Below are positions 14,843 to 47,305 of a stretch of 64,000 nt of DNA, piece after piece. Each line of letters opens with the position of its first letter. Position 1 is the stretch's first letter. The notes below the pieces were generated by a model that saw only the letters and a program-made list of their open reading frames with translations, made no database searches and had not been told where the DNA came from. The stretch is from Alphaproteobacteria bacterium (GTDB lineage: Bacteria > Pseudomonadota > Alphaproteobacteria > SMXQ01): assembly GCA_030831315.1 (NCBI GenBank), contig JAURLI010000052.1:25905-89904 (forward strand), given 5' to 3'. A program made the translations under genes and the position numbers.

Positions 14843-15062
14843 CAGGGTTCGATCGGGAAAGGGGACCTGAAACCAGGCGGGAGTCAGGTGATAAACCTTC
14901 CCCCGGTCCCGGTCAGTAATAATTCTCCTTCGCGGGGGAAAACCCCGAAACCGCAGGGTTTCCGGGCCCGGTTGCGGGGGCCGGGGTTTTGCACTAGAAC
15001 GGGCACGGAAATGGTATGTTGCCGGTTGGCACGTATGTAAAAGGGCAGGAAAGGCTTCGAAA

Positions 15063-21394: not shown

Positions 21395-22905
21395 CAGTCT
21401 TCCAGCACGCGGCCTTCGGGCTTCATGCGGCTGACCATTCTGTTGATGCCCTTGAAGATCAGCGGTCCGAAGAAGCCGAGCAGGGTGAAGAACAGGAACA
21501 GGTCGACGATCCAGCTTTCGAAGAAACGGAACCAGTTGTTGTCGAAAATGATCATCGACTGGGACCAGAATTCCTCGACCAGGCGGCCGAGGATCAGTCC
21601 CATGACGAAGGGTGCCGGGCCGAAGCCGTGGCGCAGCATGACGAAGCCGAGAAGCCCCGCGAGAAGCATCACCCAGACGTCGAACACCGACTGGTGATAG
21701 GCATAGGCACCGATCATCGAGAAGACGAACACCGCGGGCCACAGAAGCTGGCGCTTGACCAGCGTGATGCGCGCGAACAGCTTGGCGCCGGGCAGGCCGA
21801 TCACCAGGAACAGGATGTTGGCGAGGAACATCGCCGTGAAGATCGCATAGACGAAATGGGGCGTGTTCTGCACCAGGTAGGGACCCGGGCGGAAGCCGTG
21901 GACCATCAGCGCGGCGAGGATGATCGCGGTGGTGCCGGAGCCGGGAATGCCGAGCGCCAGCGTCGGCACCATGGCGCCGCCGGTGGCGGCGTTGTTGGCC
22001 GCTTCAGGCCCGGCGATGCCTTCGATGGCGCCCTTGCCGAATTCCGACTTGTTCTTGGACCAGCGCTTGGCCTCGTTGTAGCCGATGATGGCGGCGACGG
22101 TGGAGCCTTCGGCGGGCAGGATGCCGATGAAAGTGCCGATGACGGACGAGCGCAGCATGACCCAGCGCAGCTTCACGATTTCGGCCCAGCTCGGCAGCTT
22201 GATGGCGACCGACTTGATGCGCTCGACATGTTCATTGAGCCGCTGCGACTGGTTGAGCAATTCGCCCATGGCGAACAGGCCGATGAGGACGGGCACGAAG
22301 CTGATACCTTCGACGAATTCGGAGACGCCAAAGACGAAGCGCTCGACGCCGGTGGTCAGGTGAACGCCGATGGTCGAGACCAGAACGCCGAAGGCGCCCG
22401 CGATCAGGTTTCTGAGCGATGACTTGCCGGAAATGGAGGCGAGCATCGACAGGCCGAACAGCGACAGGGCGAAATATTCGGGCGGCCTGAACGACAGCGC
22501 GACCTTGGCCAGCAGTGGTGCCGCGAGAATGAACACCACCAGCGAGAACATGCCGCCCACGACCGACGACACCGCGGCGATGCCAAGCGCGCGTCCGGCC
22601 TCGCCCTTCTGGGCGAGCGGATAGCCGTCGAGGGCGGTGGCCACCGCGGGCGGCGCGCCCGGGGTGTTGATGAGGATCGCGGTGATCGAGCCGCCGAAGG
22701 TGCCCGCGCAGTAAAGCGCCGCCATCATGGCGATGGCAGGGATGGGCGGCAGTTGCAGGGTGAACGGCAGCAAGAGGGCGACCGCCATGGTCGACGACAG
22801 GCCGGGCAGCGCGCCGACGAGCACGCCGAGCAGCACGCCCACCAGGATCAGGAAGAAATGATAGGGCACGAGGATGAGGCCGATGCCCTGAAGAATCGGT
22901 TCCAT
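21394..22905 (-). CDS. tctA: Tripartite tricarboxylate transporter permease TctA
   Basis: 503 aa polytopic membrane protein, duplicated GxxPG-containing halves typical of TctA. Confidence 0.85.
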   Translation of the reverse strand: MEPILQGIGLILVPYHFFLILVGVLLGVLVGALPGLSSTMAVALLLPFTLQLPPIPAIAMMAALYCAGTFGGSITAILINTPGAPPAVATALDGYPLAQKGEAGRALGIAAVSSVVGGMFSLVVFILAAPLLAKVALSFRPPEYFALSLFGLSMLASISGKSSLRNLIAGAFGVLVSTIGVHLTTGVERFVFGVSEFVEGISFVPVLIGLFAMGELLNQSQRLNEHVERIKSVAIKLPSWAEIVKLRWVMLRSSVIGTFIGILPAEGSTVAAIIGYNEAKRWSKNKSEFGKGAIEGIAGPEAANNAATGGAMVPTLALGIPGSGTTAIILAALMVHGFRPGPYLVQNTPHFVYAIFTAMFLANILFLVIGLPGAKLFARITLVKRQLLWPAVFVFSMIGAYAYHQSVFDVWVMLLAGLLGFVMLRHGFGPAPFVMGLILGRLVEEFWSQSMIIFDNNWFRFFESWIVDLFLFFTLLGFFGPLIFKGINRMVSRMKPEGRVLED

Positions 22906-22914
22906 GGTCGGATG

Positions 22915-23451
22915 CTATCCCAGTATCGGGGCCAAGAGCCCGGGGAGGAAATGAACCTTGAGGCCGTTGACGAAAATCAGCCGCACGGTGAGGGGGAACA
23001 GGATGGCGAAGGGCAGGATCACCCAGAGGCGCCGCTCGTTCCACAGGATCGGCAGCAGCAGGCAGGCGAGAACCATGCTCAGGTCCGTACCCAGCCATTC
23101 GAACAGGGTGACGATCAGGACAAGCGCAAGCGCCGTGATGAAGGTGATCGAAACGACCTTGTTGCTTCGTTCTTCATCGAGGTCCGCACCCTTCTTCTTC
23201 TTGAAGTGGTTTTCAAAGGGCAGGTAAAGCGACATCGCCATGATGCAGCCGAGGATGATGCGCGGGAAGAATGTCGGCGGGACGTTCTGGCTCAGCTGCG
23301 CGGCGACGGTGTCCCAGCGCGTGGTCTCAAACCAGAGAGCCGCGCAGGCGACGAGAATGATGATGGTAATCCAGAGATCGGTACGGTGCACGAAGGGCGC
23401 ACTTCTGCGCGCGCCCTTCGCACCCGTCGATCCGGCGTTGCCGGTGGTCAC
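22915..23451 (-). CDS. tctB: Tripartite tricarboxylate transporter small subunit TctB
   Basis: 178 aa, four hydrophobic helices, between tctC and tctA. Confidence 0.75.
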   Translation of the reverse strand: MTTGNAGSTGAKGARRSAPFVHRTDLWITIIILVACAALWFETTRWDTVAAQLSQNVPPTFFPRIILGCIMAMSLYLPFENHFKKKKGADLDEERSNKVVSITFITALALVLIVTLFEWLGTDLSMVLACLLLPILWNERRLWVILPFAILFPLTVRLIFVNGLKVHFLPGLLAPILG

Positions 23452-23472
23452 GGAAATATACTCCGGCTTCCG

Positions 23473-24510
23473 TTATTTCTTCTTCTTGAGGAGGCCGAGC
23501 TCGCCCAGCGCTTCGCGGGCAATCTTGATCTCTTCCTGGATCTGGTCGGTCCAGACCTTGGAGCCGGCCGGGCTGGTCTTCGGATCGAGGCCCGAGCCGC
23601 GCAGGTAGCCCGCGAAGACGTCATGCTTCATCGCGGCCAGAATGCCCTTTTCCAGCGCCTTGATCACTTCCGGCGGCGTGCCGGCCTTGACCGCATAGCC
23701 GCGGGTCGTGGTGACCGTCAGCTGCCAGCCCTTTTCATGGCTGGAGGGGACGTTCTTGTAGGCAGGCAGCCGCGCCTTGTCGAGCAGCAGCAGCGGGCGA
23801 ACCGTGCCGTCCTCGATCTGGCCGCCGGCTTCCGAGACGTTCGGCAGGGTCGCGTCGATGGCGTTCGACAGCAGCGCCTGAACCATCTTGCCGCCCGAGC
23901 CGAAGGGCACGACCTTGAACTTGATGCCCGCCGCCTTGGCAAAACGCGCAAGGCCGACGTGCTCGGTGCCGCCGATCTGCGACACGCCCCAGTTCAGCGG
24001 CTTGTCCTTGGAGGCGGCAATCAGTTCCTCGATCGTCTTGTACTTGCTGTTCTTGCCGACGACGATGAAGGTCGGATCGTCCATGGCGCGCGCCACGCCG
24101 ACCAGTTCCGGGCCCTTCAGCGGCGATTTGCCGAGAGCAATTGTGTAGAAGTGCGTCTGGGTCAGCGCGATCAGGGTGTGGCCGTCGGCCGGGCGCGACA
24201 TCAGGTATTCATGGGCGACCTTGCCCGAGCCGCCGCGCTTGTAGACGACGTTGATGACGGCGCCGGTGTCCTTGTATTCCGGGTTGCCCTTCGCCAGTTC
24301 ACGGCGCGAGCGGATCATCATCATGCGGGCGGTGACGTCGGTGCCGCCGCCGGGTGCGGCGTGGCTGATGATCTGGATTTCCTTGGTCGGGAACTTTTCC
24401 GCGGCAATGGCGGAGCCTGCATAGGCGCCGATCGTGAAAGCGGCGGCGAGGCCGGTCGCCATGCCAAGGCGTGCGGCCGTCGTGGAAACGGTTGTGGTGT
24501 GGATTCGCAT
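23473..24510 (-). CDS. tctC: Tripartite tricarboxylate transporter substrate-binding protein TctC (canonical, 345 aa)
   Basis: Signal peptide and TctC core; heads a tctCBA-prpD operon; no C-terminal extension. Confidence 0.85.
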   Translation of the reverse strand: MRIHTTTVSTTAARLGMATGLAAAFTIGAYAGSAIAAEKFPTKEIQIISHAAPGGGTDVTARMMMIRSRRELAKGNPEYKDTGAVINVVYKRGGSGKVAHEYLMSRPADGHTLIALTQTHFYTIALGKSPLKGPELVGVARAMDDPTFIVVGKNSKYKTIEELIAASKDKPLNWGVSQIGGTEHVGLARFAKAAGIKFKVVPFGSGGKMVQALLSNAIDATLPNVSEAGGQIEDGTVRPLLLLDKARLPAYKNVPSSHEKGWQLTVTTTRGYAVKAGTPPEVIKALEKGILAAMKHDVFAGYLRGSGLDPKTSPAGSKVWTDQIQEEIKIAREALGELGLLKKKK

Positions 24511-32144: not shown

Positions 32145-33428
32145 ATGACGACAGTTCTCAGAACCGCTTTTCTCGGTGCGCTGTTCGCGTGCCTGTCGGT
32201 TTTTGCGGTCCTTTCGCCCGCGAAGGCCGATGCGGTCGCCGATTTCTACAAGGGCAAGAATGCGCAGATGATCATCGGATCGTCGGCGGGCGGCGGCTAC
32301 AACCAGTATGGCCGCCTGGTCGCCCGTCATATCGATCGGCACATCCCGGGCCATCCGTCGATCGCGGCCAAGAACCAGCCGGGCGGCTCCGGGCGCAAGG
32401 CGCTCAATTACGTTGCCAACGTTGCCAAGCCCGATGGCCTGACCATGGGCATCGTCAGCCGCAACACGCATTTCGACCGGCTTCTCTACGGGGACAAGTC
32501 GGTTGACGTCGATTCGACCAAGCTGGTCTGGCTCGGCAGCGCCAACAGCGAGGTGTCGCTCTGTGTGTCCTGGCACGCAACGCCCATCAAGACGATCCAG
32601 GATGCCCGCAACGGCATGACCATCGGTTCGTCGGGGCCGGTCGCCACCGATACGCTGATGGCGCGCATCCTCAACCAGATTGCTGATACCAAGATCAAGG
32701 TCATCCTCGGCTATCCGGGTTCGACCGAAGTGCATCTGGCGCTCGAGCGCGGCGAAGTGACGGGCCGTTGCGGCTTTGGCTGGGACAGCATCGTTTCGCG
32801 CTACTACGACTGGATCAAGGACAAGAAGATCAACCTGCTGGTGCAGCTTGCCACCAACAAGCATCCGGACCTTCCCAACGTTCCGTCGTTCAAGGACTTC
32901 GCCAAGACCGATACCGAACGCCAGATGCTGCAGATCTTCACGCTGCCCAATGAAATGGGACGTCCCTTCTTCGCTCGTTCGGGCATCCCGGCCGACCGCG
33001 TGAAGGCGCTGCGCGCTGCATTCGTGGCGGCGATGAAGGATCCGGCGCTGCTGGCGGAAGCAAAGAAGCAGCGTCTCGCCATCGAGGCACTCGACGGTGC
33101 CACGGTCGAAAAGATGGTGAAGGAGGTCTACGCCAGCCCCGCCGAAGCGGTGAAACTGGCGGCATCCATCGTGAACACGACGGAGAAGCTCGAGAAGCGC
33201 AAGGAGAACTTCTACACCGTCAGCGTCTCGCTGGGTGCGGTGAAGAAGAAAGGCCGCGAGCTGAGCTTCATGGAAAAGGGCAAGGAGGCGAAAGCCGTCC
33301 TCACCCGCGCGACCAAGGTTACGGTCGGCGGCGAGAAGGCCAAGACCTCGAAGCTCAAGGCCGGAATGACCTGCGACGTCACCTACGAAGGCAACCTGTC
33401 GGTCGCCAAGTCGGTCGCCTGCAAGTAA
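32145..33428 (+). CDS. Bug/TctC-family substrate-binding protein with C-terminal two-Cys extension (paralog 3, most divergent)
   Basis: TctC core to ~aa 330, then KKGRELSFMEKGKEAKAVLTRATKVTVGGEKAKTSKLKAGMTCDVTYEGNLSVAKSVACK. Confidence 0.8.
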   Translation: MTTVLRTAFLGALFACLSVFAVLSPAKADAVADFYKGKNAQMIIGSSAGGGYNQYGRLVARHIDRHIPGHPSIAAKNQPGGSGRKALNYVANVAKPDGLTMGIVSRNTHFDRLLYGDKSVDVDSTKLVWLGSANSEVSLCVSWHATPIKTIQDARNGMTIGSSGPVATDTLMARILNQIADTKIKVILGYPGSTEVHLALERGEVTGRCGFGWDSIVSRYYDWIKDKKINLLVQLATNKHPDLPNVPSFKDFAKTDTERQMLQIFTLPNEMGRPFFARSGIPADRVKALRAAFVAAMKDPALLAEAKKQRLAIEALDGATVEKMVKEVYASPAEAVKLAASIVNTTEKLEKRKENFYTVSVSLGAVKKKGRELSFMEKGKEAKAVLTRATKVTVGGEKAKTSKLKAGMTCDVTYEGNLSVAKSVACK

Positions 33429-35642: not shown

Positions 35643-35853
35643 TTCCCGGCGTTTCCGCGCCTTCCGAATCGTTTTGACAGTGCCGAGAGCGGCGCGGCAT
35701 CATCGCGCCAATCCCGGCCGCTTGTGGCCGGGCGATTTGCAAGCTCTGGCTTGGCGCAAATGTGCATGCCACCGGCATCGTGCCGGGGTATGGGCCCCCG
35801 AAGAAGGCCGCGTTCCAGCAACACCTCGCCGCCTTCTTTTGGGAGACACGAAA

Positions 35854-37119
35854 ATGACATTCTCATTGCGCGCGCGCGCCTTACTCGGCGCGGCAGTTTC
35901 GTTCGGCCTTGCCTCTACAGCATCGGCGGAGACGCCCGCCGAATTCTTCAAGGGCAAGACCGTCAACATGTACATTTCCTCGGGCGCGGGCGGCACCAAC
36001 GATGCCTATGCGCGCCTGATCGCCGAACACATCACCCGGCACCTGCCGGGTCAGCCCAACGTGCTGCCGCGCAACATGCCGGGTGCGGGCGGGCTGAAGG
36101 CGACGAAGTACCTTTATACCGTCGCGCCCAAGGACGGGCTCGCGATGGGTGTTGTGCAACGCGCCGTCGCGGTGCAGCCGCTGCTCGGCATCAAGGGGGC
36201 GGATTTCAATCCGCTCGAATTCAACTGGGTCGGCTCCACCGCCCAGGAAGTTTCCGTCGCGGTCGCCTGGAAGACTTCGAAGGTTCAATCGATCAAGGAG
36301 GCCGTGCAGAACGAACTGGTGGTGGGTTCGTCCGGCGTCGGCAACGACACCGGCGCGTTCCCGCGCGTCGTGAATTACTTCCTCGGCACCAAGGTTCGCC
36401 CCATCCACGGCTATGTCAGCGGCACCGACATCACGCTGGCCATGGAGCGCGGCGAAGTGCATGGCCGCTTCGGCTGGTCGTGGGGCTCGCTCAAGAGCCG
36501 CGAAGCGCGCTGGCTCAAGGACGGCTCGATTAAGGTCATCCTGCAGATGGGTCTCAAGAAGGCGCCAGACCTCGATGCGCCGCTGGTGCTCGATCTCGCC
36601 AAGACGCCCGAGGACCGCAAGGCGATGGAAGTGATCTTCGCCGCCACCACCATCGGCTGGCCGTCGCTGTTGCCGCCGAAGGTGGCCGCCGAACGCGTCG
36701 CCGCGTTCCGCGCCGCTTATGCCGCGACCGTGAAGGACCCTGCCTTCGTGAAGGGGGCGGAGAAGCGCGGGCTTGAGCTCGATCCGTTGAGCGGCGAGGA
36801 AATCCAGTCGATCATCGCCAACATCTATGCGTCTTCGCCCGACATCGTCGAGCGCGCCCGCAAGGCCTACGCGCCGGGCGGCAAGGTCGAAATGGCGAAG
36901 GTCCTCAACGCCAAGGGCAAGATCGCCAAGATCAACAAGAAGGGCACGCGCATGACCATCGATGACGGCAAGGCCAAGGTCGAGGCGCGCATCGCCGGTG
37001 ATACCAAGATCACCATTGCCGGCGAAGCGGCCAAGCGCGAGGCGCTCAAGCAGGACTTGACCTGCGCGGTGACGCTGGTGGCTTCCGGCGCGGTTGCGCA
37101 CGCGGTTACCTGCGATTGA
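35854..37119 (+). CDS. Bug/TctC-family substrate-binding protein with C-terminal two-Cys extension (paralog 4)
   Basis: ATG 35854 with GGGAGA RBS; signal peptide; TctC core; extension GKIAKINKKGTRMTIDDGKAKVEARIAGDTKITIAGEAAKREALKQDLTCAVTLVASGAVAHAVTCD. Confidence 0.85.
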   Translation: MTFSLRARALLGAAVSFGLASTASAETPAEFFKGKTVNMYISSGAGGTNDAYARLIAEHITRHLPGQPNVLPRNMPGAGGLKATKYLYTVAPKDGLAMGVVQRAVAVQPLLGIKGADFNPLEFNWVGSTAQEVSVAVAWKTSKVQSIKEAVQNELVVGSSGVGNDTGAFPRVVNYFLGTKVRPIHGYVSGTDITLAMERGEVHGRFGWSWGSLKSREARWLKDGSIKVILQMGLKKAPDLDAPLVLDLAKTPEDRKAMEVIFAATTIGWPSLLPPKVAAERVAAFRAAYAATVKDPAFVKGAEKRGLELDPLSGEEIQSIIANIYASSPDIVERARKAYAPGGKVEMAKVLNAKGKIAKINKKGTRMTIDDGKAKVEARIAGDTKITIAGEAAKREALKQDLTCAVTLVASGAVAHAVTCD

Positions 37120-37330: not shown

Positions 37331-38593
37331 ATGAACCGCTTTCAAACCATCAGTGTATTCGCGTTGGCAGCCCTTGGCGCGGGCCTGAGCCAGCCGGCAG
37401 GTGCTGCACCCGAAGACGTGCTCAAGGGCAAGAACGTCAACATGTTCATTTCGTCTGGCGCGGGGGGAACCAACGATACCTTCGCCCGCCTGATTGCCGA
37501 TCACATGGCGCGTCATTTGCCGGGCCAGCCCAATATCCTGCCGAAGAACCTGCCCGGCGCCGGCGGGCTCAAGGCGGCCAAGTTCCTCTATACCCAGGCG
37601 TCGCGCGAAGGCCTGTCCATGGGCGTGGTGCAGCGTTCCATCGCGGCGCAGCCGCTTCTCGGCATCAAGGGCGCGGATTTCAACCCGCTCGAGTTCAACT
37701 GGATCGGTTCCACCGCATCCGAAGTTTCGGCGGGCGTGGTGTGGAACGCACCCGAAATCAAATCGATCCAGGATGCGCTGCAGAACGAAGTGCTGATTGG
37801 ATCGTCCGGCGTGGGCAACGACACCGGGGCGTTCCCGCGCGTCGTGAATTATTTCCTCGGCACCAAGCTGCGGCCGATCCACGGCTATATCTCGGGGACC
37901 GACATCATCCTTGCCATGGAGCGCGGCGAGGTGAAGGGCCGTTTCGGCTGGTCCTGGGGCTCGGTCAAGAGCCGTGAGCCCAAGCGTCTCAAGGATGGCA
38001 CCATCAAGGTGCTTTTGCAGATGGGCATCAAGAAGGCGCCCGATCTCGACGCGCCGCTGGTGCTCGATCTCGCCAAGAACGAACAGGACCGCAAGGCCAT
38101 GGAAGTGATCTTCGCACAGGTCACCATCGGCTGGCCGTCGCTGCTGCCGCCGAAGGTCCCGGCCGACATGGTCAAGGCCTACCGCGACGCCTACAAGGCG
38201 ACCATGAAGGATCCGAAGTTCGTGAAGGGGGCGAAGGATCGCAGGCTCGACCTCGATCCCCTTTCGGGCGAGGAAATCCAGTCGATCATCGCCAATATCT
38301 ACGCCTCGCCGCCGGAAGTGGTGACGCTTGCCCGCAAGGCCTATTCGCCCGGCGGTAATATCGAGATGGCGAAGATCCTCAAGGTCAAGGGTCCGATCGC
38401 CAAGATCAACAAGAAGGGGTCCAAGCTGACCATGACCGTCGACGGCAAGAAGGTCGATGCGCGGGTCGCCGGGCGCACGAAGATCACCATCGCCGGCAAG
38501 AAGGCGGAACGAAAGGCGCTGAAGGCCGGGATGACCTGCACGATGTCGCTGGTGGCATCGGGCGCGGTCGCCCAGAAGATGGCCTGCAACTGA
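37331..38593 (+). CDS. Bug/TctC-family substrate-binding protein with C-terminal two-Cys extension (paralog 5, tandem to paralog 4)
   Basis: Extension GPIAKINKKGSKLTMTVDGKKVDARVAGRTKITIAGKKAERKALKAGMTCTMSLVASGAVAQKMACN; core highly similar to paralog 4. Confidence 0.85.
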   Translation: MNRFQTISVFALAALGAGLSQPAGAAPEDVLKGKNVNMFISSGAGGTNDTFARLIADHMARHLPGQPNILPKNLPGAGGLKAAKFLYTQASREGLSMGVVQRSIAAQPLLGIKGADFNPLEFNWIGSTASEVSAGVVWNAPEIKSIQDALQNEVLIGSSGVGNDTGAFPRVVNYFLGTKLRPIHGYISGTDIILAMERGEVKGRFGWSWGSVKSREPKRLKDGTIKVLLQMGIKKAPDLDAPLVLDLAKNEQDRKAMEVIFAQVTIGWPSLLPPKVPADMVKAYRDAYKATMKDPKFVKGAKDRRLDLDPLSGEEIQSIIANIYASPPEVVTLARKAYSPGGNIEMAKILKVKGPIAKINKKGSKLTMTVDGKKVDARVAGRTKITIAGKKAERKALKAGMTCTMSLVASGAVAQKMACN

Positions 38594-39422: not shown

Positions 39423-40148
39423 ATGCTGCGTTTTACGACCCTGACCGCGGACAGCAGCGCGATGACGGCGCTGGTTTCAATTCCTGCCCGCGGCATGGCG
39501 CCTTTTCCCGGACTTGTCGTCATGCCCCATCGCGGCGGCATCGATCGCTTCACCATCGACCGGCTGGACCGCCTCGCCGATCTCGGTATCGCGTCGGTCG
39601 CTCCCGACATCTACCATCGCCAGCCCGTGGCAACCCCGACGACCCAGGGCAAGGACCAGTTGCGCGACGACGAAATCGAATCCGATATCGCGGCGGTTCT
39701 GGAATTCATTGCCGCGGACGGACGTTTCGACAAGGCGCGTCTCGGCATTCTGGGCCACTGCCAGGGCGGGCGTACGGCGCTGATCGGGCTGGTGTCCCGT
39801 CCTGAGGCGTTCTGCGCAGGCGTCATCTATTACGGCGGTTCGATCTTCAAGCGCATGGGCGGACCCGGCCCCGCGCCGTTCAACCGGATGTCGGTGATCA
39901 AGTGTCCGATTGCCGGTTTCTTCGGAAACGACGATTCCAATCCGTCGCCCGATGACGTCAGCCGCTTTGATGCGGAACTGCGGCGGCTCAAGATCCCGCA
40001 TGAATTTCATCGCTATGACGGCGCCGGTCACGCCTTCCAGGATTTCACCGACCACCATCGTTCGCGCGAACCGCAGGGCGAGCAGGCCTGGGCGGCAACG
40101 GTCACTTTCCTGAAGCGAGAGCTTGGCCTGGACGCGGCGGCTACCTGA
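39423..40148 (+). CDS. Dienelactone hydrolase family protein (tandem paralog)
   Basis: GILGHCQGG and HEFHRYDGAGHAF; same architecture as 38702..39400. Confidence 0.8.
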   Translation: MLRFTTLTADSSAMTALVSIPARGMAPFPGLVVMPHRGGIDRFTIDRLDRLADLGIASVAPDIYHRQPVATPTTQGKDQLRDDEIESDIAAVLEFIAADGRFDKARLGILGHCQGGRTALIGLVSRPEAFCAGVIYYGGSIFKRMGGPGPAPFNRMSVIKCPIAGFFGNDDSNPSPDDVSRFDAELRRLKIPHEFHRYDGAGHAFQDFTDHHRSREPQGEQAWAATVTFLKRELGLDAAAT

Positions 40149-40356
40149 AGACCTGCTGCAGGCCGGCGCGGAACAGCACCTTGTTTGCCGCCTCGGTCGA
40201 AACGACCGGGTAGGGCAGGGTGAATTCGCGGTTGAGGTGCGGGGTGAACCACACCTCGGTTCCGGGGTCGTCGCCTGCGCGCAAGGGGTAACAGCCCGCC
40301 TGTTCGAGGTGGTCGCGCAAGGCCATTTCGATGCGGCCCCGGGGCATGTCGATCAT
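40141..40356 (-). CDS. Small hypothetical protein (71 aa), convergent and overlapping 8 nt with upstream DLH gene
   Basis: GAGGAG RBS 6 nt before ATG at 40356; MIDMPRGRIEMALRDHLEQAGCYP... Confidence 0.35.
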   Translation of the reverse strand: MIDMPRGRIEMALRDHLEQAGCYPLRAGDDPGTEVWFTPHLNREFTLPYPVVSTEAANKVLFRAGLQQVFR

Positions 40357-40404: not shown

Positions 40405-41343
40405 ATGGCGGCTCGCTATAGTGCGCCGACCATGCGCATCGCTTCGCTCCTTCCATCCGCTACCGAAATCGTCGCCGTGCTGGGCGCCGCCGACGAACTG
40501 GTGGCGCGCAGCCATGAATGCGACTTTCCTGCGGGCATCGAAAACTTGCCGGTGCTGACCGAAGCCAAGATCGATTCATCCGGTTCATCGGCGGAAATTC
40601 ATGCGCGCATGGAAACGGCGGCGACCGATGCCCTGTCGGTTTACCGGGTGGATGTGGACGAACTGCGCCGCCTCGCCCCTGATGTCATCGTCACCCAGGC
40701 CCAATGCGAGGTCTGCGCGGTATCGGAAAACGACGTCATCGCGGCGCTGGCCGATTGGCCCGGCGGCGGGCCGGACTTGGTCAGCCTGAGGGCGGAAGAC
40801 CTTGCGGGCGTCTACGAGGACATACGCCGGGTAGGAGCCGCGCTCGGCCGCGCCGAGGCGGGTGAGCGTGCCGCCGGCGCCATGCGCGACCGCATTACCC
40901 GCATCGCGCTCGAAGCGTCCGACGCCGACTGGAAGCCGCGCCTGCTCGTCATCGAGTGGATGGAGCCGTTGATGGCCGGCGGCAACTGGATGCCGGAACT
41001 TGTCACGCTCGCGGGTGCGGAAAACCTTCTGTCGCAGGCGGGCAGGCATTCGCCGTGGATCACATGGGACGATGTCCGCGCCGCCGATCCCGACGCCATC
41101 CTGATCACGCCTTGCGGCTTCGACATTCCTCGCACGCTGTCCGATATCGCCGCCGTGACCGATCGGCCGGGGTGGGCGGAACTTGCCGCCGTGCGCGCGG
41201 GCCGCGTGGGCGTGGCCGACGGCAATGCGTTTTTCAACCGGCCGGGGCCGCGGCTTGCCGAAAGCCTCGAAATACTGGCGGAATTTCTGCATCCGGAATT
41301 CTTCGATTTCGGCCACGCGGGAAACAATTTCCGCCGCCTCTAG
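40405..41343 (+). CDS. Periplasmic-binding-fold protein of cobalamin/Fe3+-siderophore (BtuF-like) type, apparently without signal peptide
   Basis: RIASLLPSATEIVAVLGAADELVARS class-III PBP N-terminal block; start ATG 40405 or 40432. Confidence 0.6.
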   Translation: MAARYSAPTMRIASLLPSATEIVAVLGAADELVARSHECDFPAGIENLPVLTEAKIDSSGSSAEIHARMETAATDALSVYRVDVDELRRLAPDVIVTQAQCEVCAVSENDVIAALADWPGGGPDLVSLRAEDLAGVYEDIRRVGAALGRAEAGERAAGAMRDRITRIALEASDADWKPRLLVIEWMEPLMAGGNWMPELVTLAGAENLLSQAGRHSPWITWDDVRAADPDAILITPCGFDIPRTLSDIAAVTDRPGWAELAAVRAGRVGVADGNAFFNRPGPRLAESLEILAEFLHPEFFDFGHAGNNFRRL

Positions 41344-41428
41344 CCCCGGTCTTGGCGCGTTGACAGCGCCGCGCCAAGGGTCGATCATTCGGGGAAAGCC
41401 ATAAAAAATTCCCTAGGGAGTTCCCCCA

Positions 41429-43501
41429 GTGTTCCGTTCCCCGACCCCGATTTTCCGGGCGCAAAGCGTCGCCATCATCGGCGCTTCCGACCGCGCCAAG
41501 TGGCCGCTCACGATCTATGAAAACCTGCGCGACGGGGGATACCCGGGCCGCATCTATCCGATCAATCCGCGCCGCGACGAGGTGTGGGGCGTCAAGTGCT
41601 ACACCGGTTTCGATACCCTGCCGGAAACCCCGGACCTCGGCCTGTTCATCGTACCCGCCGATGCGGTGTTGGAGACCATGGAGCAGGGCATTGCCCGCGG
41701 TCTCAAGGCGGCTATCGTCTATGCCGCCAATATTGGCGAAGGCCATGATCCGGAAGTACTGGCCCGCGGGCAGCGTCTCAGGGCGCTCTGCGCCGATGCG
41801 GGCGTCACCGTCGCCGGTCCCAACTGCATGGGCGGCATGGCGGTGCGCGAAAAGCTGTTCCTTTATCCGAACAAGCCGATCTGCCGCCGGGCGCCCGGCT
41901 CCGTTGGTGCCGTGTTCCAGTCGGGCGGCACTCTCCAGTTCTGGGTGCAGACGTCGCAGGTGCGCGGCCTGCGGTTCTCCTACGCCATGTCGTCGGGCAA
42001 CGAGCTTGGGCTTGATCTTGCCGATTACGTCAATTTTCTGGTGGACGATCCCGAGACCAAGACCATCGTCCTGTTCATCGAGGGCATCCGGCGCATGGAT
42101 GCCTTCAAGGAAGCCTGTGCGCGCGCACTTGCCGCCCGCAAGCCGATCGTCGCCATCAAGACCGGGCGCACCGTGCGCTCGCGCGAGGCGGCCCAGTCCC
42201 ACACCGGCGCCATCGGCGGCGACTGGTCGGGCTATGCGGCTCTTTGCGAACGCTACGGCATCACCAATTGCGCCACTCTCGACGACCTGACCGAGACCGT
42301 GCTCGCCTTCCAGCAGGGCCGCCTGCCGGCGGGGCCGAACATCGGCTTCGTTACTACCTCGGGCGGCACCGTCGATCTGCTTTATGACTATGTCGAGGAC
42401 GAGGGGTCCTCAATGCCGGCCTATGGCGCCAAGACCCTGGCGCGGATCAAGCCGCATATCCCGCCCGAGATGAACCCGAAGAACCCGCTCGATTCGGGCA
42501 TCCCCGCGGGCAACAAGACGATGGCGGCGATCTGTCAGGCGGTGCTTGATGATCCCGCGATCGACATGCTCGCCTTTGCCGGCCAGATATCGGCGGGCCG
42601 CGCCGATATCGAAGGGGCCGAGCCGATCAAGACGCTGCTCGAGTATTCCACGAAGCCGGTCATCGGCTTCGGTCGCATGCGCTACCAGATGAGCGACGAA
42701 AGCATCCGCTATCAAGATCACGTCGGCATTCCCTATTTGCAGGGATTGCCCGAGACTTTGCGCGCACTCAACGCCCTTGCGGCCTATGGCGCGCGCGCGG
42801 GCAGGGCGGTGGCGAAGCTTCCGGCCGCCAACGGCAAAGCGGTCGAGCTCGCCGGCAAGGCCTTCGACAAATTGCTGAACGCCAACGGCGTGACCCTGCC
42901 CAAAAGCGCGCTGTGCAAATCGGGCGCTGAAGCCGCGCGCGCGGCGAAACGCATCGGCTTCCCCGTCGCCGTCAAGGTTGTCGCGCCGAAGTTCTCCCAC
43001 AAGACGGAAGTGGGCGGCGTGATCCTTAACCTGGCGTCGGCTGCCGACGTGGCGAAGGCGGCGAAGACCTTGGCGCAACGCATCCGCAAGGCCGACCGCA
43101 AGGCGGAAATCACCGGTTATCTCGTGCAGGAAATGGTGTCGGGCGTGGAGATGATCGCGGGCTGCCGCAATGATCCGGTCTATGGCCCGGTGCTCCTGCT
43201 GGGTTCGGGCGGCGTGCTGGTGGAGCTGACCCGCGATACCACCCAGCGCCTGCTGCCGGTCAGCGCCGCCGATGTGCGCGCCATGATCGGGGAATTGAAA
43301 GTGAAGAAGCTGCTCGATGGCTTCCGTGGCGCCAGGCCGGCCGATACGGCGGCGCTGGTCAAGGCGGTGGTCGGCCTCGGCAAGGTATTCCTCAGGCACC
43401 GGGAAAATCTCTCGGATCTCGAGGTCAACCCGCTGATCGTGCGGGAAAAAGGAAAAGGTGTCGCCGCCGTGGACGTCCGTCCCGTGCGGCGCAAGGTCTA
43501 G
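41429..43501 (+). CDS. NDP-forming acyl-CoA synthetase (acetyl-CoA synthetase ADP-forming family; FerA-type feruloyl/hydroxycinnamoyl-CoA synthetase candidate)
   Basis: 690 aa; CoA-binding N-domain (VAIIGASDR), succinyl-CoA-synthetase-like ligase domain and C-terminal ATP-grasp; GTG start with AGGGAG RBS; HCHL gene downstream. Confidence 0.75.
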   Translation: MFRSPTPIFRAQSVAIIGASDRAKWPLTIYENLRDGGYPGRIYPINPRRDEVWGVKCYTGFDTLPETPDLGLFIVPADAVLETMEQGIARGLKAAIVYAANIGEGHDPEVLARGQRLRALCADAGVTVAGPNCMGGMAVREKLFLYPNKPICRRAPGSVGAVFQSGGTLQFWVQTSQVRGLRFSYAMSSGNELGLDLADYVNFLVDDPETKTIVLFIEGIRRMDAFKEACARALAARKPIVAIKTGRTVRSREAAQSHTGAIGGDWSGYAALCERYGITNCATLDDLTETVLAFQQGRLPAGPNIGFVTTSGGTVDLLYDYVEDEGSSMPAYGAKTLARIKPHIPPEMNPKNPLDSGIPAGNKTMAAICQAVLDDPAIDMLAFAGQISAGRADIEGAEPIKTLLEYSTKPVIGFGRMRYQMSDESIRYQDHVGIPYLQGLPETLRALNALAAYGARAGRAVAKLPAANGKAVELAGKAFDKLLNANGVTLPKSALCKSGAEAARAAKRIGFPVAVKVVAPKFSHKTEVGGVILNLASAADVAKAAKTLAQRIRKADRKAEITGYLVQEMVSGVEMIAGCRNDPVYGPVLLLGSGGVLVELTRDTTQRLLPVSAADVRAMIGELKVKKLLDGFRGARPADTAALVKAVVGLGKVFLRHRENLSDLEVNPLIVREKGKGVAAVDVRPVRRKV

Positions 43502-43510
43502 GAGACGTCG

Positions 43511-44665
43511 ATGGAATACGAACTGCCCGAAGAGCTGCGGCTTCTCAAGGAGACGCTCAGGCGCTACGTCAACGAGGTGATGATCCCGATCGAGCGCGAA
43601 ACCTGCGAAGGGGTCAAGCTCAAGTCCGAATACAAGAAGAAGTTCGACGAGGATTCGAAGCGCCTCGGCCTGTGGCTCCTCGATGTGCCCGAGGAATTCG
43701 GCGGCCAGGGCATGGGCGTTCTCGCCACCTGCATCGTGACCGAAGAAATGGCCCGCTCCATCGCCCTGCCGACGCGCGGCGGCTACTTCACCGGCCCGAA
43801 CGTGCGTTCGATCCTCTACGAACTCGACGATGAGATGAAGGAGCAGTACCTCTATCCCGTCATCCGCGGCGAAAAGAAGGCCTGCTTCGGCCAGACCGAG
43901 CCGGACGCGGGCTCCGATCCCGGCTCCATGCGCACCACCGCCGTGCGCGACGGCGACGATTACGTCATCAACGGCGTGAAGCGCTTCATCACCGGCGCGG
44001 GCGAAGCCGATTTCATCCAGTTGATGGCGGCGACCGACCGCTCGAAAGGCTCGCGCGGTGGTATTTCGTGCTTCATCATCGACATGAACACACCGGGCGT
44101 CCGGCTCGGTGCCCAGTACGAGACGATGATGGGCGACCGGCCCTGGGAAATCATTTTCGAAAACGTCCGGGTTCCGGCGAAGCGCCTTGTCGGCAAGGAA
44201 GGCGAGGGCTTCAAGCTGGGCCAGCGTTGGCTCGGCGCGGGGCGTTTGCGCCACGGCTCGCGCGCGCTTGGCGTTGCCGAGCGCTGCATCGAGATGATGG
44301 TGAGCTATGCCAAGCAGCGCGTGACCTTCGGCAAGCCGCTCGCCGATCGCCAGGCGATCCAGTGGATGATCGCCGATTCCTATATCGAACTTCATGCGGC
44401 GCGGCTGATGGTCTATCACGCCGCGGCCAAGGCCGATTCGGGCGAGGACTACCGTATGGAAGCCTATATTGCGAAGTACTATTCGGACGAAATGGCCTTC
44501 CGTGTCGCCGACCGCTGCCTGCAGGTACATGGCGGCATCGGCCTGACCAAGGACCTGCCGATCGAGCACATGTGGCGCCAGCAGCGCTCCACCCGCATCA
44601 CCGAAGGTGCCAGCGAGGTCATGAAAATGGTCATCGCGCGCGGTATCCTGCGGCAGTACGATTAG
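43511..44665 (+). CDS. Acyl-CoA dehydrogenase
   Basis: ACAD blocks FGQTEPDAGSD, GVKRFITG, QVHGGIGL. Confidence 0.85.
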   Translation: MEYELPEELRLLKETLRRYVNEVMIPIERETCEGVKLKSEYKKKFDEDSKRLGLWLLDVPEEFGGQGMGVLATCIVTEEMARSIALPTRGGYFTGPNVRSILYELDDEMKEQYLYPVIRGEKKACFGQTEPDAGSDPGSMRTTAVRDGDDYVINGVKRFITGAGEADFIQLMAATDRSKGSRGGISCFIIDMNTPGVRLGAQYETMMGDRPWEIIFENVRVPAKRLVGKEGEGFKLGQRWLGAGRLRHGSRALGVAERCIEMMVSYAKQRVTFGKPLADRQAIQWMIADSYIELHAARLMVYHAAAKADSGEDYRMEAYIAKYYSDEMAFRVADRCLQVHGGIGLTKDLPIEHMWRQQRSTRITEGASEVMKMVIARGILRQYD

Positions 44666-44769
44666 ACCGGAATTTGGCGGGAACCGCGGGTTTCCGTCGC
44701 TTGCGCCCGTGGGGGGCGGTTGCTACCCTGCGGGCAGAATCAACATAACTTAATGTCAGGGAGTGTCGC

Positions 44770-45636
44770 ATGGCCAAAGCCGCGAAGTCGTCCAAGAGCA
44801 AGAAAACCGTCCGCAACCTCGAAACCGTCATCATCGAAAAGGAAGACGGCATCGCCTGGTGCATCTTCAACCGGCCCGAAAAGCGCAACGCGATGAGCCC
44901 GCAGTTGCACCTGGACATGAACCAGGCGCTCGACGAGCTCGCCATCGACCCGGAAGTGAACGTCGTCATCATCACCGGCGCGGGCAAGGCCTTCTCGGCG
45001 GGTCAGGACATCCGCCTTTACTTCCGCGGCACCACCGAAGATCCGGCGAAGCGCCACAAGGCGAAGCACGCCTCCCACGCCTGGCGCTGGACGAAGCTTG
45101 CCAGCTTCCCGAAGCCGACCATCGCCATGGTCAACGGCTACTGCTTCGGCGGTGCCTTTACCCAGGTCTCGGCCTGCGACTTCGCCATTGCCGCCGATGA
45201 TGCGGTCTTCGGCCTGTCGGAAATCAACTGGGGCATCCTTCCGGGCGGCATCGTCAGCTGGAACGTGGTCGAGATGATGACCATGCGCGACGCCATGTAC
45301 TACGCCTGCACCGGCGAAACCTTCACCGGCAAGCAGGCCTCCGCCATGCGCTTCATCACCAAGTCGGTGCCGAAGGCGAAGCTGCGCGCGGAAACGGTCA
45401 AGCTCGCCAAGCTCCTCCAGCAGAAGAGCCCGGCGGCGCTCCGCTACACCAAGGAAGGCGTGCGCGCCGTCCGTTACATGAGCGTCGATCAGGCGGCCGA
45501 TTACCTCAACGCCAAGTCGGACGCGCTGAAATATGTCGACAAGGAACGCTCGCGCGAAAAGGGCATGAAGCAGTTCCTCGACGACAAGACCTATCGTCCG
45601 GGCCTCGGTCACTTCGACCGCTCCAAGGATCTCTAG
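44770..45636 (+). CDS. Hydroxycinnamoyl-CoA hydratase-lyase (HCHL/feruloyl-CoA hydratase-lyase, crotonase superfamily)
   Basis: Recalled near-identity of blocks to HCHL: NRPEKRNAMSP, TIAMVNGYCFGG, LSEINWGILPG, C-terminal GMKQFLDDKTYRPGL. Confidence 0.75.
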   Translation: MAKAAKSSKSKKTVRNLETVIIEKEDGIAWCIFNRPEKRNAMSPQLHLDMNQALDELAIDPEVNVVIITGAGKAFSAGQDIRLYFRGTTEDPAKRHKAKHASHAWRWTKLASFPKPTIAMVNGYCFGGAFTQVSACDFAIAADDAVFGLSEINWGILPGGIVSWNVVEMMTMRDAMYYACTGETFTGKQASAMRFITKSVPKAKLRAETVKLAKLLQQKSPAALRYTKEGVRAVRYMSVDQAADYLNAKSDALKYVDKERSREKGMKQFLDDKTYRPGLGHFDRSKDL

Positions 45637-45685
45637 CGTCCGGGGGGCGGCGGCTTATCGCCGCCCCATCGCTCGCCCGGCCATC

Positions 45686-46663
45686 ATGACAGCCACCATC
45701 GGCATCATCGGGCTCGGCAACCTCGGCCTTTCCATGTCGAAGAACCTGATGGCGCGCGGCCATCGGGTGATCGGCTTTCGCCGCTCGGCCATGACCGGGT
45801 TCGCAAGCCTTGGCGGCATCCCGGCAACATCGCCGCGCGAGGTCGCGGAAAAATCCGATTTCGTCATCACCAGCCTGCCCTCGGGCGAAGCCCTTGCCGA
45901 AGTTTGCTCGGGCGCGAACGGTATCGCGCGCGCATCACGACCGGGGCTTGCCTTGTTCGAGCTGTCGACCCTGCCGCTTGCAGCAAAGCTTGAACAGAAA
46001 AAGGCGCTCGAAGCCGCCGGCATGACGATGCTGGACGGCACGATTTCCGGCAACCCCGTCTATTTCGCCAATCGCAGCGCGGCCGTCTTCATCGGCGGCG
46101 AACGTGCCGCCTTCGATAACCATGCCGCCACCTTGCGCGACATGACCGACAAGGTGACCTGGCTCGGCCCCTTCGGCGCGGGCAGGGTGGCCAAGTTCGT
46201 GGCGTTGTATCTGGTCTGCGCGCATACGCTGGCGGCGGCAGAAGCGTTCGAACTGGCAAGCCGTGCCGGACTCGATCGCAAGGCGATGTTCGAGGCCATC
46301 AAGGGCTCGAACGCGTCTTCGGCGATGCTGGAAAGCCGCGGTGCCCTGATGCTTGATCGCGACTATTCGAGTTTTTCCCAGGACAAGGAAGGCCGCGTCA
46401 AGGCGCGGACGAAGGATGGCGACGCAGCACCCGTGCGCGGCATGGCAAGTCGTGTGCGCCAGGTAGAACGCCTTGCCGATTTTGCCCATGAACTGGGCGG
46501 TCGCTACCCGCTGCTCGATGCCATGAACGCGGCTTACGGCGAGGCCATCGCCGCCGGCGTCGGGCGCTACGACATCGCCGAGGTGTTCGAGCACCTGATG
46601 GCGGATGCCCCGGAAACCGCCGATATCGACGCTGTTCTGGCGCTTCTGGCCGGCCAGCGCTGA
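45686..46663 (+). CDS. NAD(P)-dependent beta-hydroxyacid dehydrogenase (3-hydroxyisobutyrate dehydrogenase family)
   Basis: IGIIGLGNLGLSMSKNL Rossmann N-terminus. Confidence 0.75.
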   Translation: MTATIGIIGLGNLGLSMSKNLMARGHRVIGFRRSAMTGFASLGGIPATSPREVAEKSDFVITSLPSGEALAEVCSGANGIARASRPGLALFELSTLPLAAKLEQKKALEAAGMTMLDGTISGNPVYFANRSAAVFIGGERAAFDNHAATLRDMTDKVTWLGPFGAGRVAKFVALYLVCAHTLAAAEAFELASRAGLDRKAMFEAIKGSNASSAMLESRGALMLDRDYSSFSQDKEGRVKARTKDGDAAPVRGMASRVRQVERLADFAHELGGRYPLLDAMNAAYGEAIAAGVGRYDIAEVFEHLMADAPETADIDAVLALLAGQR

Positions 46664-46771
46664 GGCGCCCGAAATCCCCCAAAGCTTCATTCAGCGCCGT
46701 TTTCCCGGGGCGGCCTTCCGGTGCTATAATGCCGCAAACGCCAATCGAACGATAAATATGGAGGAAACGTG

Positions 46772-47305
46772 ATGTCGGTCGAAAATATCCCCATGAGTGC
46801 CCGCGAGTCCGAAGAGTTCAAGCACGGCAACGCGCGCGATGAACTTCTCGCCACGGCGGAAAAGCCGGTGTTCTTCAGCATGCGCACGCGGATGGTGAAA
46901 ACCGGCCGCACCAATACCCCGGTGTGCAAGACCGAGAACATGTGGGGCACGGTCAAGGTTTATGCATCGGGCGGTGAAAACGGCCTGCATGCCCATACCA
47001 AGCAGGATCACATGTTCGTCGTCATGCAGGGTTCGGCCCGCTTTTACGGCCCCAATGGCGAAACCCGCGACGTCGGCAAGCATGAAGGCGTGCTGCTGCC
47101 CAAGGGCTGCTATTACTGTTTCAACGCCACGTCGAAGGAGCCGCTGGTGCTGTTCCGCGTCGGCTGCCATACCGAGGAAGCGAAGGACAAGTCCTTGCCC
47201 GGTCGCTTGGACATCAAGGGCGGGTCAATGCCCGGCGATCATCCGGAAAACGCCAAGGGCGCCAAGGCCGCGCCGCTGGTTTACAGCGACGAATGGTTTG
47301 AATAA
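46772..47305 (+). CDS. Cupin-domain protein (paralog of 33561..34061)
   Basis: GGAGGA RBS; LHAHTKQDHMFVVMQGSARFYGPNG cupin motifs. Confidence 0.65.
   Translation: MSVENIPMSARESEEFKHGNARDELLATAEKPVFFSMRTRMVKTGRTNTPVCKTENMWGTVKVYASGGENGLHAHTKQDHMFVVMQGSARFYGPNGETRDVGKHEGVLLPKGCYYCFNATSKEPLVLFRVGCHTEEAKDKSLPGRLDIKGGSMPGDHPENAKGAKAAPLVYSDEWFE

Follow-up and report, generated by a model that had tools for sequence, protein, structure and literature searches.

Described side-chain cleavage systems

Several described gene clusters pair a coenzyme A (CoA) ligase or synthetase with an enzyme of the p-hydroxycinnamoyl-CoA hydratase/lyase (HCHL) family. Here, we compare them with a cluster on the + strand of a 64-kb stretch of alphaproteobacterial DNA (hereafter called the window; GC content, 64%), in which genes encoding a nucleoside diphosphate (NDP)-forming acyl-CoA synthetase, an acyl-CoA dehydrogenase (ACAD), and an HCHL-family lyase follow one another. 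Domain scans took in the open reading frames (ORFs) of 28 to 58 kb and the remainder of the window, and it is to these ORFs that statements on the gene content of the window refer.

The ferBA genes of Sphingobium sp. SYK-6 resemble the window in pairing a synthetase of the NDP-forming superfamily with an HCHL-family lyase (FerB/FerB2) for a CoA-dependent cleavage outside beta-oxidation, the enzyme class of the SYK-6 feruloyl-CoA synthetase FerA reportedly having been described by Masai and coworkers in 2002. We know of no ACAD in the SYK-6 fer operon, and SYK-6 has the MarR repressor FerC, whereas no MarR gene occurs among the window ORFs scanned. The hca cluster of Acinetobacter baylyi ADP1 shares with the window the presence of an HCHL-type lyase (HcaA/Ech) and an ACAD (HcaD) in one cluster, and HcaD is tied to the use of saturated (dihydro) acids. 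However, hca and the fcs-ech-vdh genes of Pseudomonas include an AMP-forming ligase (HcaC/Fcs), a vanillin dehydrogenase (HcaB/Vdh), and the MarR regulator HcaR, none of which was found among the window ORFs scanned.

The p-coumarate/ferulate route of Rhodopseudomonas palustris comprises CouB, CouA, CouR, and uptake by an ATP-binding cassette (ABC) transporter (CouPSTU) and a tripartite ATP-independent periplasmic (TRAP) transporter (TarPQM) (PMC3610893, PMC10612212). Like the window, couAB combines a ligase with an enoyl-CoA hydratase/aldolase, and uptake in R. palustris is binding-protein dependent. The couAB route is described without an ACAD and with the MarR regulator CouR, the window being the opposite in both respects (PMC3610893, PMC10612212). 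In the Xanthobacteraceae, members of the window HCHL clade adjoin an ABC system of the Peripla_BP_6 type and a gene resembling, distantly, an NDP-forming synthetase. R. palustris CouA is not among the 80 closest species-representative matches of the window lyase, all of which are at least 58% identical to it.

A cultured bacterium that degrades lignin, Sagittula stellata E-37, has the same three-part architecture, and its hydroxycinnamate catabolism was studied by Frank et al. 2018, as cited in PMC12442348. Its plasmid NZ_CP155730 resembles the window in carrying an NDP-forming synthetase, an HCHL, and ACADs in one operon-like run that lies close to a carboxylate transporter and lacks an aldehyde dehydrogenase (ALDH). 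The run consists of an acetate--CoA ligase family protein, a p-hydroxycinnamoyl-CoA hydratase/lyase, two ACADs, a GMC oxidoreductase, and an IclR regulator; TRAP genes lie upstream. The parts are not orthologous to those of the window, however (identities of 28 to 31% for the synthetase, 23 to 28% for the ACADs, and 51% for the HCHL), and their order is synthetase-HCHL-ACAD-ACAD rather than synthetase-ACAD-HCHL. Furthermore, Sagittula has IclR and TRAP genes where the window has a tripartite tricarboxylate transporter (TTT) system, and its HCHL has Met70 and Pro124 like the canonical enzymes, in contrast to Gln70 and Gln124 in the window. Literature searches pairing an NDP-forming synthetase with feruloyl-CoA hydratase, or dihydroferulate with an ACAD, returned nothing useful.

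A conserved synthetase-ACAD-lyase unit

ORF and Pfam checks recovered, at exactly the same coordinates, the five + strand ORFs that a preliminary description of this DNA had grouped into one cluster for hydroxycinnamate side-chain cleavage, and GC contents at the third codon position of 0.77 to 0.89 support all five as real genes. From a BtuF-like gene at the upstream end, through the synthetase, ACAD, lyase, and beta-hydroxyacid dehydrogenase-family genes, to a cupin gene beyond them, the successive gaps are 85, 9, 104, 49, and 105 bp. The conserved core is narrower than the five-gene cluster first drawn and is made up of three genes on the + strand. The first encodes an NDP(ADP)-forming acyl-CoA synthetase of the fused alpha-beta type (41429-43501; 690 amino acids [aa]; Pfam CoA_binding_2, Succ_CoA_lig, and ATP-grasp_5), the second encodes a FAD-dependent ACAD of the short-chain/butyryl-CoA dehydrogenase group (43511-44665; 384 aa; Pfam Acyl-CoA_dh_N, _M, and _1), and the third encodes an HCHL-family enoyl-CoA hydratase/lyase, or aldolase (44770-45636; 288 aa; Pfam ECH_1). 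The synthetase and lyase genes lie on the same strand, with the ACAD gene alone between them.

Gene contexts were compared across 80 genome loci (numbered with an L below) and further metagenome contigs, the 80 loci being the closest species-representative genomes that carry the window HCHL clade (lyase identity, 58 to 97%). The orthologous triad (synthetase at least 51% and ACAD at least 62% identical) was present in 12 of these species-level loci (L015, L017-L024, L038, L079, and L085) and additionally in L009, L095, and a Gemmatimonas locus (L010) from a metagenome-assembled genome (MAG), so that it spans phyla. Given its recurrence in 12 of 80 loci and on metagenome contigs, the grouping of the middle three genes is more than chance. 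The five-gene claim therefore holds for the synthetase, ACAD, and lyase genes but not for the BtuF-like gene, which is split off by unrelated genes in relatives.

An NDP-forming synthetase lies no more than 10 kb from the window HCHL clade in 31 of the 80 loci. Where it belongs to the synthetase lineage of the window, an ACAD orthologue is always present (12/12), whereas none occurs where the clade is accompanied solely by a distant NDP-forming synthetase (0/19); the exact probability of this split is about 7e-9, for loci that are not phylogenetically independent. Overall, ACAD orthologues (54 to 99% identity) adjoin the HCHL gene in 16 of the 80 loci. Such a co-occurrence of synthetase and ACAD is as expected if the ligase makes a saturated thioester for the ACAD.

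An exact copy of the lyase sequence was found on one ENA metagenome contig, and in a MAG labeled Alphaproteobacteria bacterium, a lyase 97% identical to it lies in full synteny (JAYQQF010000004.1; locus L015). Cultured organisms provided no close relative. The relatives are almost all MAGs, many with isolate names of soil or peat type, and a single one of the 80 species-representative genomes, that of Terripilifer ovatus (L080), comes from a cultured carrier of the clade. In the plasmid set, homologues borne on plasmids of cultured bacteria reach at most 52% identity for the lyase and at most 35% for the synthetase. Two plasmid matches were considered for comparison and set aside: the synthetase match of Novosphingobium PP1Y as a FerA proxy, which has a generic crotonase (26% identical to HCHL) and not FerB as its neighbor, and the HCHL of Sphingobium RAC03, which has no adjoining synthetase.

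Four types of context were found for the window HCHL clade, the triad being type A. Type B, in Xanthobacteraceae loci, combines a Peripla_BP_6 ABC system with a short, distant synthetase-like ORF. Type C loci, in which no CoA ligase is visible, combine an SBP_bac_1 ABC transporter and hydantoinase A/B with a 290-aa NAD_binding_2 dehydrogenase, NMT1, Ldh_2, and a molybdopterin oxidoreductase. In type D, the lyase gene is accompanied by two Amidohydro_2 genes, one TctC-like gene, an ABC transporter, and a distant NDP-forming synthetase. In view of such heterogeneous contexts, proteins that automatically receive the name "feruloyl-CoA hydratase/lyase" probably serve several different physiological roles. 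As to the individual types, the synthetase-like ORF just upstream of the HCHL gene in Xanthobacteraceae MAGs is about 440 to 530 aa long and 32 to 36% identical to the window synthetase (L025, L030, L043-L045, L050, L051, and L087); either the enzyme has an alpha-only form there, or a crude ORF finder may have shortened the call. The hydantoinase A/B genes, of the acetone/acetophenone carboxylase family, were seen in L006-L008, L026, L031, L032, L034, L056, L061, L062, and L067, with HCHLs 66 to 74% identical to that of the window.

The lyase belongs to the HCHL family

The assignment of the crotonase to the HCHL family, already proposed in the preliminary description, is borne out by the curated NCBIfam HCHL equivalog NF006588, whose cutoff of 276 bits is passed by 100 bits (score, 376.3 bits), and by the retention of Glu143, Tyr75, and Gly151 (residue numbers follow the Pseudomonas fluorescens enzyme). 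All plain hydratase equivalog models in the NCBIfam scan remained below their own cutoffs. On the same NF006588 scale, the P. fluorescens HCHL scores 494 bits, 6p5u 447 bits, the Sagittula HCHL 418 bits, and the window clade, all context types included, 361 to 376 bits. The best relatives in the PDB are 6p5u (E value, 9e-83) and the P. fluorescens HCHL 2j5i (8.5e-81; 48% identity), and identity to true HCHLs, measured from end to end and with their specific C-terminal block included, is 48 to 51%. The three sequence blocks on which the family had been recognized beforehand, NRPEKRNAMSP, LSEINWGILPG, and GMKQFLDDKTYRPGL, are all found in the translation. The protein also matches Pfam ECH_2.

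Absence of the HCHL catalytic residues had been named beforehand as a result that would speak against this family; in the alignment, the catalytic Glu143, the oxyanion-hole Gly151, and Tyr75 are all aligned and kept in the window lyase, and Glu143, Tyr75, Gly151, and Trp146 are invariant among its 120 relatives. The clade is set apart by a signature of Gln70 (Met in 2j5i), Thr123 (Ser), Gln124 (Pro), and Asn239 (Tyr), which is also present in the triad-linked lyases of L009 and the Gemmatimonas locus. Of these, Thr in place of Ser123 is common to the window lyase, 6p5u, and the Sagittula HCHL. Hydroxycinnamates are predicted substrates of the lyase on the basis of its family membership.

The synthetase and the acyl-CoA dehydrogenase

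Both the domain fusion and the phosphohistidine motif SHTG257 of the synthetase bear out its predicted NDP-forming class, and the motifs GPNCMG130 and HKTEVGGV524 are present as well. The absence of a GNAT domain from its Pfam matches sets it apart from the Pat-type acetyltransferases. An AMP-binding domain protein, as in the AMP-forming Fcs route, was not found among the window ORFs scanned. Its best PDB relative is an archaeal ADP-forming 4-hydroxybutyrate-CoA ligase (8wzu; E value, 1e-90; 31% identity), and the NCBIfam equivalogs for acetate, 3-hydroxypropionate, 4-hydroxybutyrate, and succinate were all far below cutoff. Synthetases of the triad clade share 51 to 97% identity with the window enzyme, and their genes are always followed by that of the ACAD.

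Affinity to FerA was judged through proxies, namely Sagittula, other HCHL-adjacent synthetases, Novosphingobium PP1Y, and 8wzu. The window synthetase is 28 to 31% identical to the HCHL-adjacent synthetase of Sagittula, 29 to 34% to other HCHL-adjacent NDP-forming synthetases, and 33% to the Novosphingobium PP1Y protein, and its 120 best database matches (at least 54% identity) have generic names only, with none named FerA; FerA is likewise missing from its PDB matches. The HCHL-linked NDP-forming synthetases thus appear to be deeply divergent from one another, with the window enzyme showing no special affinity to any proxy and probably forming a lineage separate from the HCHL-linked ones. The label "FerA-type" is accordingly apt for the superfamily, the domain fusion, and the pairing with HCHL (the 31 of 80 loci mentioned above); the proxies, at 28 to 34% identity, gave no sign of a more specific relatedness.

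In the ACAD, all three domains are present, the catalytic-base motif TEGASE is found at 364, and the gene starts 9 bp past the synthetase stop codon. Its PDB relatives include the butyryl-CoA dehydrogenase Bcd (5ol2; E value, 5.6e-77), short-chain acyl-CoA dehydrogenase (SCAD), and the caffeyl-CoA reductase CarC (6fah; 2.5e-69). CarC interconverts caffeoyl-CoA and hydrocaffeoyl-CoA, and as a close structural relative, it speaks for an arylpropionyl-CoA substrate, although its E value is much like those of ordinary Bcd and SCAD enzymes.

Proposed pathway and alternatives

Domain content, catalytic motifs, HCHL membership by a curated model, and the co-conservation of three genes are observed; from them we infer the individual reactions and the direction in which they run, the substrate, and what the dehydrogenase, cupin, and transporter contribute. 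On balance, it seems probable that the module carries out a CoA-dependent, non-beta-oxidative removal of two carbons from the side chain of 3-arylpropionates and the matching cinnamates. The substrate would most likely be a plant- or lignin-derived 3-(hydroxyphenyl)propionate, such as phloretate, dihydrocaffeate, or dihydroferulate, together with the matching hydroxycinnamate. The ADP-forming synthetase would thioesterify the free acid via a phosphohistidine intermediate, the ACAD would desaturate the acyl-CoA at the alpha,beta position and pass the electrons to an electron transfer flavoprotein encoded elsewhere, and the HCHL-family enzyme would hydrate the enoyl-CoA and then cleave it by a retro-aldol reaction into an aldehyde and acetyl-CoA. 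In the window lineage, the aldehyde or a derivative of it may be processed by the beta-hydroxyacid dehydrogenase-family enzyme and the cupin, and uptake probably proceeds via one of the divergent TctC-like binding proteins and the TctAB system of the window. The reaction logic and family memberships are well supported, and the substrate is predicted from them.

The 12/12 versus 0/19 coupling and the 9-bp gap speak for a synthetase and an ACAD that act in series, with a saturated acid as the main substrate. This suggests that saturated 3-arylpropionates are the primary substrates rather than a side activity. The preliminary description had suggested that the cluster "also" accepts saturated phenylpropionates; given the coupling of the ACAD to the synthetase, these acids would be the main substrates and not a mere extension of the range.

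Several observations weigh against this proposal. The HCHL, synthetase, and ACAD clades of the window are all without a characterized member: the lyase falls in what its alignment marks as an uncharacterized sister clade of the HCHLs, only 48 to 52% identical to the characterized ones; the synthetase is as near to an archaeal hydroxy-acid ligase as to the HCHL-linked synthetases; and substrate-specific NCBIfam equivalogs for the ACAD all score below cutoff, making its assignment generic. The predicted substrate pocket of the lyase is more polar (Gln70 and Gln124) and differs from that of canonical HCHL. The window lyase and 101 of its 120 relatives have Asn at position 239, and none has Tyr there; in the P. 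fluorescens enzyme, Tyr239 is the phenolate-binding residue. Regarding the fate of the aldehyde, no Aldedh domain protein was found among the window ORFs scanned, nor were a vanillin/4-hydroxybenzaldehyde dehydrogenase, vanillate demethylase, pobA, pca, or MarR gene, and no ALDH family is among the frequent neighbors of the HCHL clade in the 80 loci. The dehydrogenase beside the lyase is of a family known for semialdehyde/hydroxy-acid pairs, not for aromatic aldehydes.

Much of this would also suit the same three-step chemistry acting on a non-phenolic substrate, either a heteroaryl propionate (e.g., indole-3-propionate) or an aliphatic dicarboxylate yielding a semialdehyde, with the neighboring dehydrogenase reducing or oxidizing the resulting aldehyde; we consider this unlikely. 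The exchange of Tyr239 for Asn and the polar Gln70 and Gln124 throughout the HCHL clade, the lack of an ALDH among its frequent neighbors, and the fact that the best solved relatives of the synthetase are hydroxy-acid ligases all fit it. So do the recurrence of an NAD_binding_2 dehydrogenase in two unrelated arrangements (a 325-aa protein with the triad and one of about 290 aa with hydantoinase A/B) and the occurrence of TctC-like carboxylate-binding proteins near the clade in 18 of the 80 loci. However, the loss of Tyr239 says little, since 7xwc, 6p5u, and the Sagittula enzyme also do without it, the dehydrogenase is missing in several triad loci, and the surroundings look aromatic-catabolic. 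Moreover, we know of no described HCHL-family enzyme that acts on an aliphatic substrate, which we count against a non-phenolic substrate.

We likewise rejected the exchange of Tyr239 as a disproof of HCHL function. The residue is Ile in 7xwc, which is named "Feruloyl-CoA hydratase/lyase" and lacks Tyr239 as the window lyase does, Ala in 6p5u, and Thr in Sagittula. As a separate observation, the Sagittula HCHL (L014:7950-8807) combines Phe75 with Thr239; therefore, neither "phenolate-binding tyrosine" of P. fluorescens is kept family-wide.

Going further, the Gln70/Gln124/Asn239 clade and its own synthetase and ACAD might constitute an undescribed CoA-dependent retro-aldol pathway that is not a hydroxycinnamate system, a possibility that we hold to be improbable. 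Its substrates would be, for example, heteroaryl propionates, nitrile-derived arylpropionates, or semialdehyde-yielding dicarboxylates, and the aldehyde would go to the beta-hydroxyacid dehydrogenase-type enzyme and the cupin in place of an aldehyde dehydrogenase. If real, such a pathway would occur widely among the uncultured Alphaproteobacteria of soil and also in Gemmatimonadota.

That the locus is a plain ferAB-like cluster for unsaturated hydroxycinnamates, in which the ACAD is peripheral or unrelated, as is often assumed for hcaD, seems to us quite unlikely. HCHL itself requires only an enoyl-CoA, and the ferAB, couAB, and fcs/ech routes all run without an ACAD. The hca clusters, moreover, include the ACAD gene hcaD outside their core route (PMC3560178). 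The position of the ACAD gene between synthetase and lyase, 9 bp from the former, and its strict coupling to this synthetase lineage are nevertheless hard to square with a bystander.

Very unlikely is a route like that of valine or isobutyrate, in which the crotonase would only hydrate, the thioester would be hydrolyzed, and an enzyme resembling 3-hydroxyisobutyrate dehydrogenase (HIBADH) would oxidize the 3-hydroxy acid without any lyase step: the series of ACAD, crotonase, and HIBADH-family genes does mirror branched-chain acid catabolism, and the crotonase matches ECH_2 with an alpha/beta hydrolase gene near it on the other strand, but the HCHL equivalog is passed by 100 bits where all hydratase models fail, the full-length identity of 48 to 51% to true HCHLs takes in their specific C-terminal block, and the dehydrogenase, which does not consistently accompany the triad, is without the usual Asn of its family. 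A dimethylsulfoniopropionate/acrylate pathway, raised by a DddX match and by AcrC as the top NCBIfam hit, was rejected, the scores being generic and far below cutoff and many relatives having soil or peat names.

All components are from known families, a cultured bacterium has an analogous cluster, and the lyase is already named by annotation pipelines. If the dedicated arylpropionate pathway proposed above is correct, many as yet uncultured Alphaproteobacteria of soil and peat, along with some Gemmatimonadota, would hold a dedicated route for saturated phenylpropionic acids, which are abundant products of the microbial reduction of lignin-derived hydroxycinnamates and of flavonoid breakdown, and would save energy with a ligase that forms ADP and not AMP. 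It would also add a new HCHL clade with a different, more polar pocket for the enzymatic production of aromatic aldehydes, and a ligase/ACAD pair to channel saturated acids into vanillin-type bioconversions. For annotation, the lesson is that the name "p-hydroxycinnamoyl-CoA hydratase/lyase" is assigned automatically to an uncharacterized clade with four distinct context types.

Accessory and flanking genes

The gene downstream of the lyase (45686-46663, +) encodes a 325-aa NAD(P) oxidoreductase of the beta-hydroxyacid dehydrogenase family that matches Pfam NAD_binding_2 and, partially, NAD_binding_11 (67 of 122 positions only), its C-terminal half being divergent and extended. Tartronate semialdehyde reductase 1vpd matches it at 1.7e-37 over residues 1 to 228 only, and an inserted, unmatched segment follows after about residue 229. 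The protein keeps the Rossmann motif GLGNLG9, SGN121, and the catalytic Lys of the family in GAGRVAKFVALY, and the usual Asn after the Lys is replaced by Ala; this replacement and the insertion suggest a non-standard substrate. All NCBIfam equivalog scores were below cutoff for this protein. The gene is present in L004, L009, L015-L017, L020-L022, and L095, but L010 and the 92%-identical L003/L018 lack it. Its position is as described beforehand, and its partial matches fit the family then assigned to it; as a part of the cluster, it is accessory and lineage specific, as several triad loci do without it, and it is not the aldehyde dehydrogenase usual in such clusters.

The cupin gene (46769-47305, +), also accessory, encodes a small monocupin of 178 aa (Pfam Cupin_2). 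In its family of 215 proteins, His74, His76, Asp80, and His81 are invariant, and the protein is predicted to bind a metal. No sequence match was obtained in the PDB or NCBIfam, and Foldseek searches with an AlphaFold2 model (mean confidence [pLDDT], 90) returned generic monocupins only, at template modeling (TM) scores of about 0.45 to 0.5. The cupin gene follows the operon in L003, L004, L009, L015-L018, L021, and L095, and homologues (46 to 48% identity) lie near the HCHL clade in the rearranged loci L069, L076, and L093, making it more persistent than the dehydrogenase. A paralogous cupin (48%) occurs in the same MAG as L015 (L097:6751-11355), together with TctC-like, arylmalonate decarboxylase-family (Amdase), NMT1, and NAD_binding_2 genes. 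The cupin and the NAD_binding_2 dehydrogenase may form a recurring module for aryl-substituted acids.

At the upstream end, the BtuF-like gene (40405-41343, +) encodes a 312-aa protein with the Pfam domain Peripla_BP_2. It had been described as a binding protein without a signal peptide, and we found no N-terminal hydrophobic segment and no upstream in-frame start, with the Pfam domain beginning at residue 12. In relatives, the gene is split from the synthetase gene by a redoxin gene on the opposite strand (L003) or by a nitrile hydratase-like set (L004 and L095). It is a lineage-specific neighbor outside the conserved unit and adjoins the synthetase gene in the window only because the nitrile hydratase-like set is absent there; its product may belong with the cobalt-type nitrile hydratase system, in metal or corrinoid handling.

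The nitrile hydratase-like set comprises three genes directly upstream of the triad and divergent from it in six lineages, including Gemmatimonas, examples being L004:4001-5326, L010:7262-8799, L021:3868-5154, L024:648-1988, and L095:1188-2481. It is absent from the window and its closest relatives. Its order is beta_N, beta_C, and alpha, as in the scnBAC genes of thiocyanate hydrolase, and the motif VCTLCSCY in the alpha component is of the cobalt type. Nitriles could sometimes be the source of the acids on which the triad acts.

A small conserved ORF (40141-40356, - strand; about 65 to 71 aa) has 21 invariant positions over four lineages, with dienelactone hydrolase genes on one side of it and either the BtuF-like gene or the synthetase gene on the other. 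It has no Pfam match on record. We considered it as a missing regulator and rejected it as such, its pattern being HicA/YcfA-like by eye.

Regulation, transport, and the wider window

As had been noted for the immediate surroundings of the cluster, no MarR/FerC-type regulator is adjacent; none was found among the ORFs scanned across the window. A candidate sigma-70-like promoter, TTGACA-17 nt-GATCAT (41360..41388, +), lies in the 85-bp gap before the synthetase gene. It is the sole promoter-like match in 38.5 to 48.3 kb, where about 1.5 are expected by chance, and in the promoter/terminator scan, the number of sites was not above that in shuffled controls. Its position is weak evidence for an operon start at the synthetase gene and not at the BtuF-like gene.

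The window encodes a complete TctABC transporter (TctCBA; 21394-24510, -) and six paralogous extended TctC/Bug-like binding proteins of about 420 to 435 aa, which are 31 to 71% identical and barely match Pfam TctC (576-1586, 7899-9206, and 9382-10692 on the - strand; 32145-33428, 35674-37119, and 37331-38593 on the + strand). At least four of the six have signal peptide-like N termini. This divergent TctC-like family, found in the 18 of 80 loci mentioned above, provides the second most common homologue of a window protein near the HCHL clade.

The neighborhood as a whole is aromatic-catabolic in flavor, with Amidohydro_2 proteins, dienelactone hydrolases, cupins, and a BD-FAE esterase, and with a Rieske oxygenase in L004. 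Elsewhere in the window are a BD-FAE-type hydrolase of the ferulic acid esterase family (2748-3632, +), a TauE/TauD pair (14042-15941), and a second ACAD-family ORF (17550-18881, +), which is 443 aa long as called.

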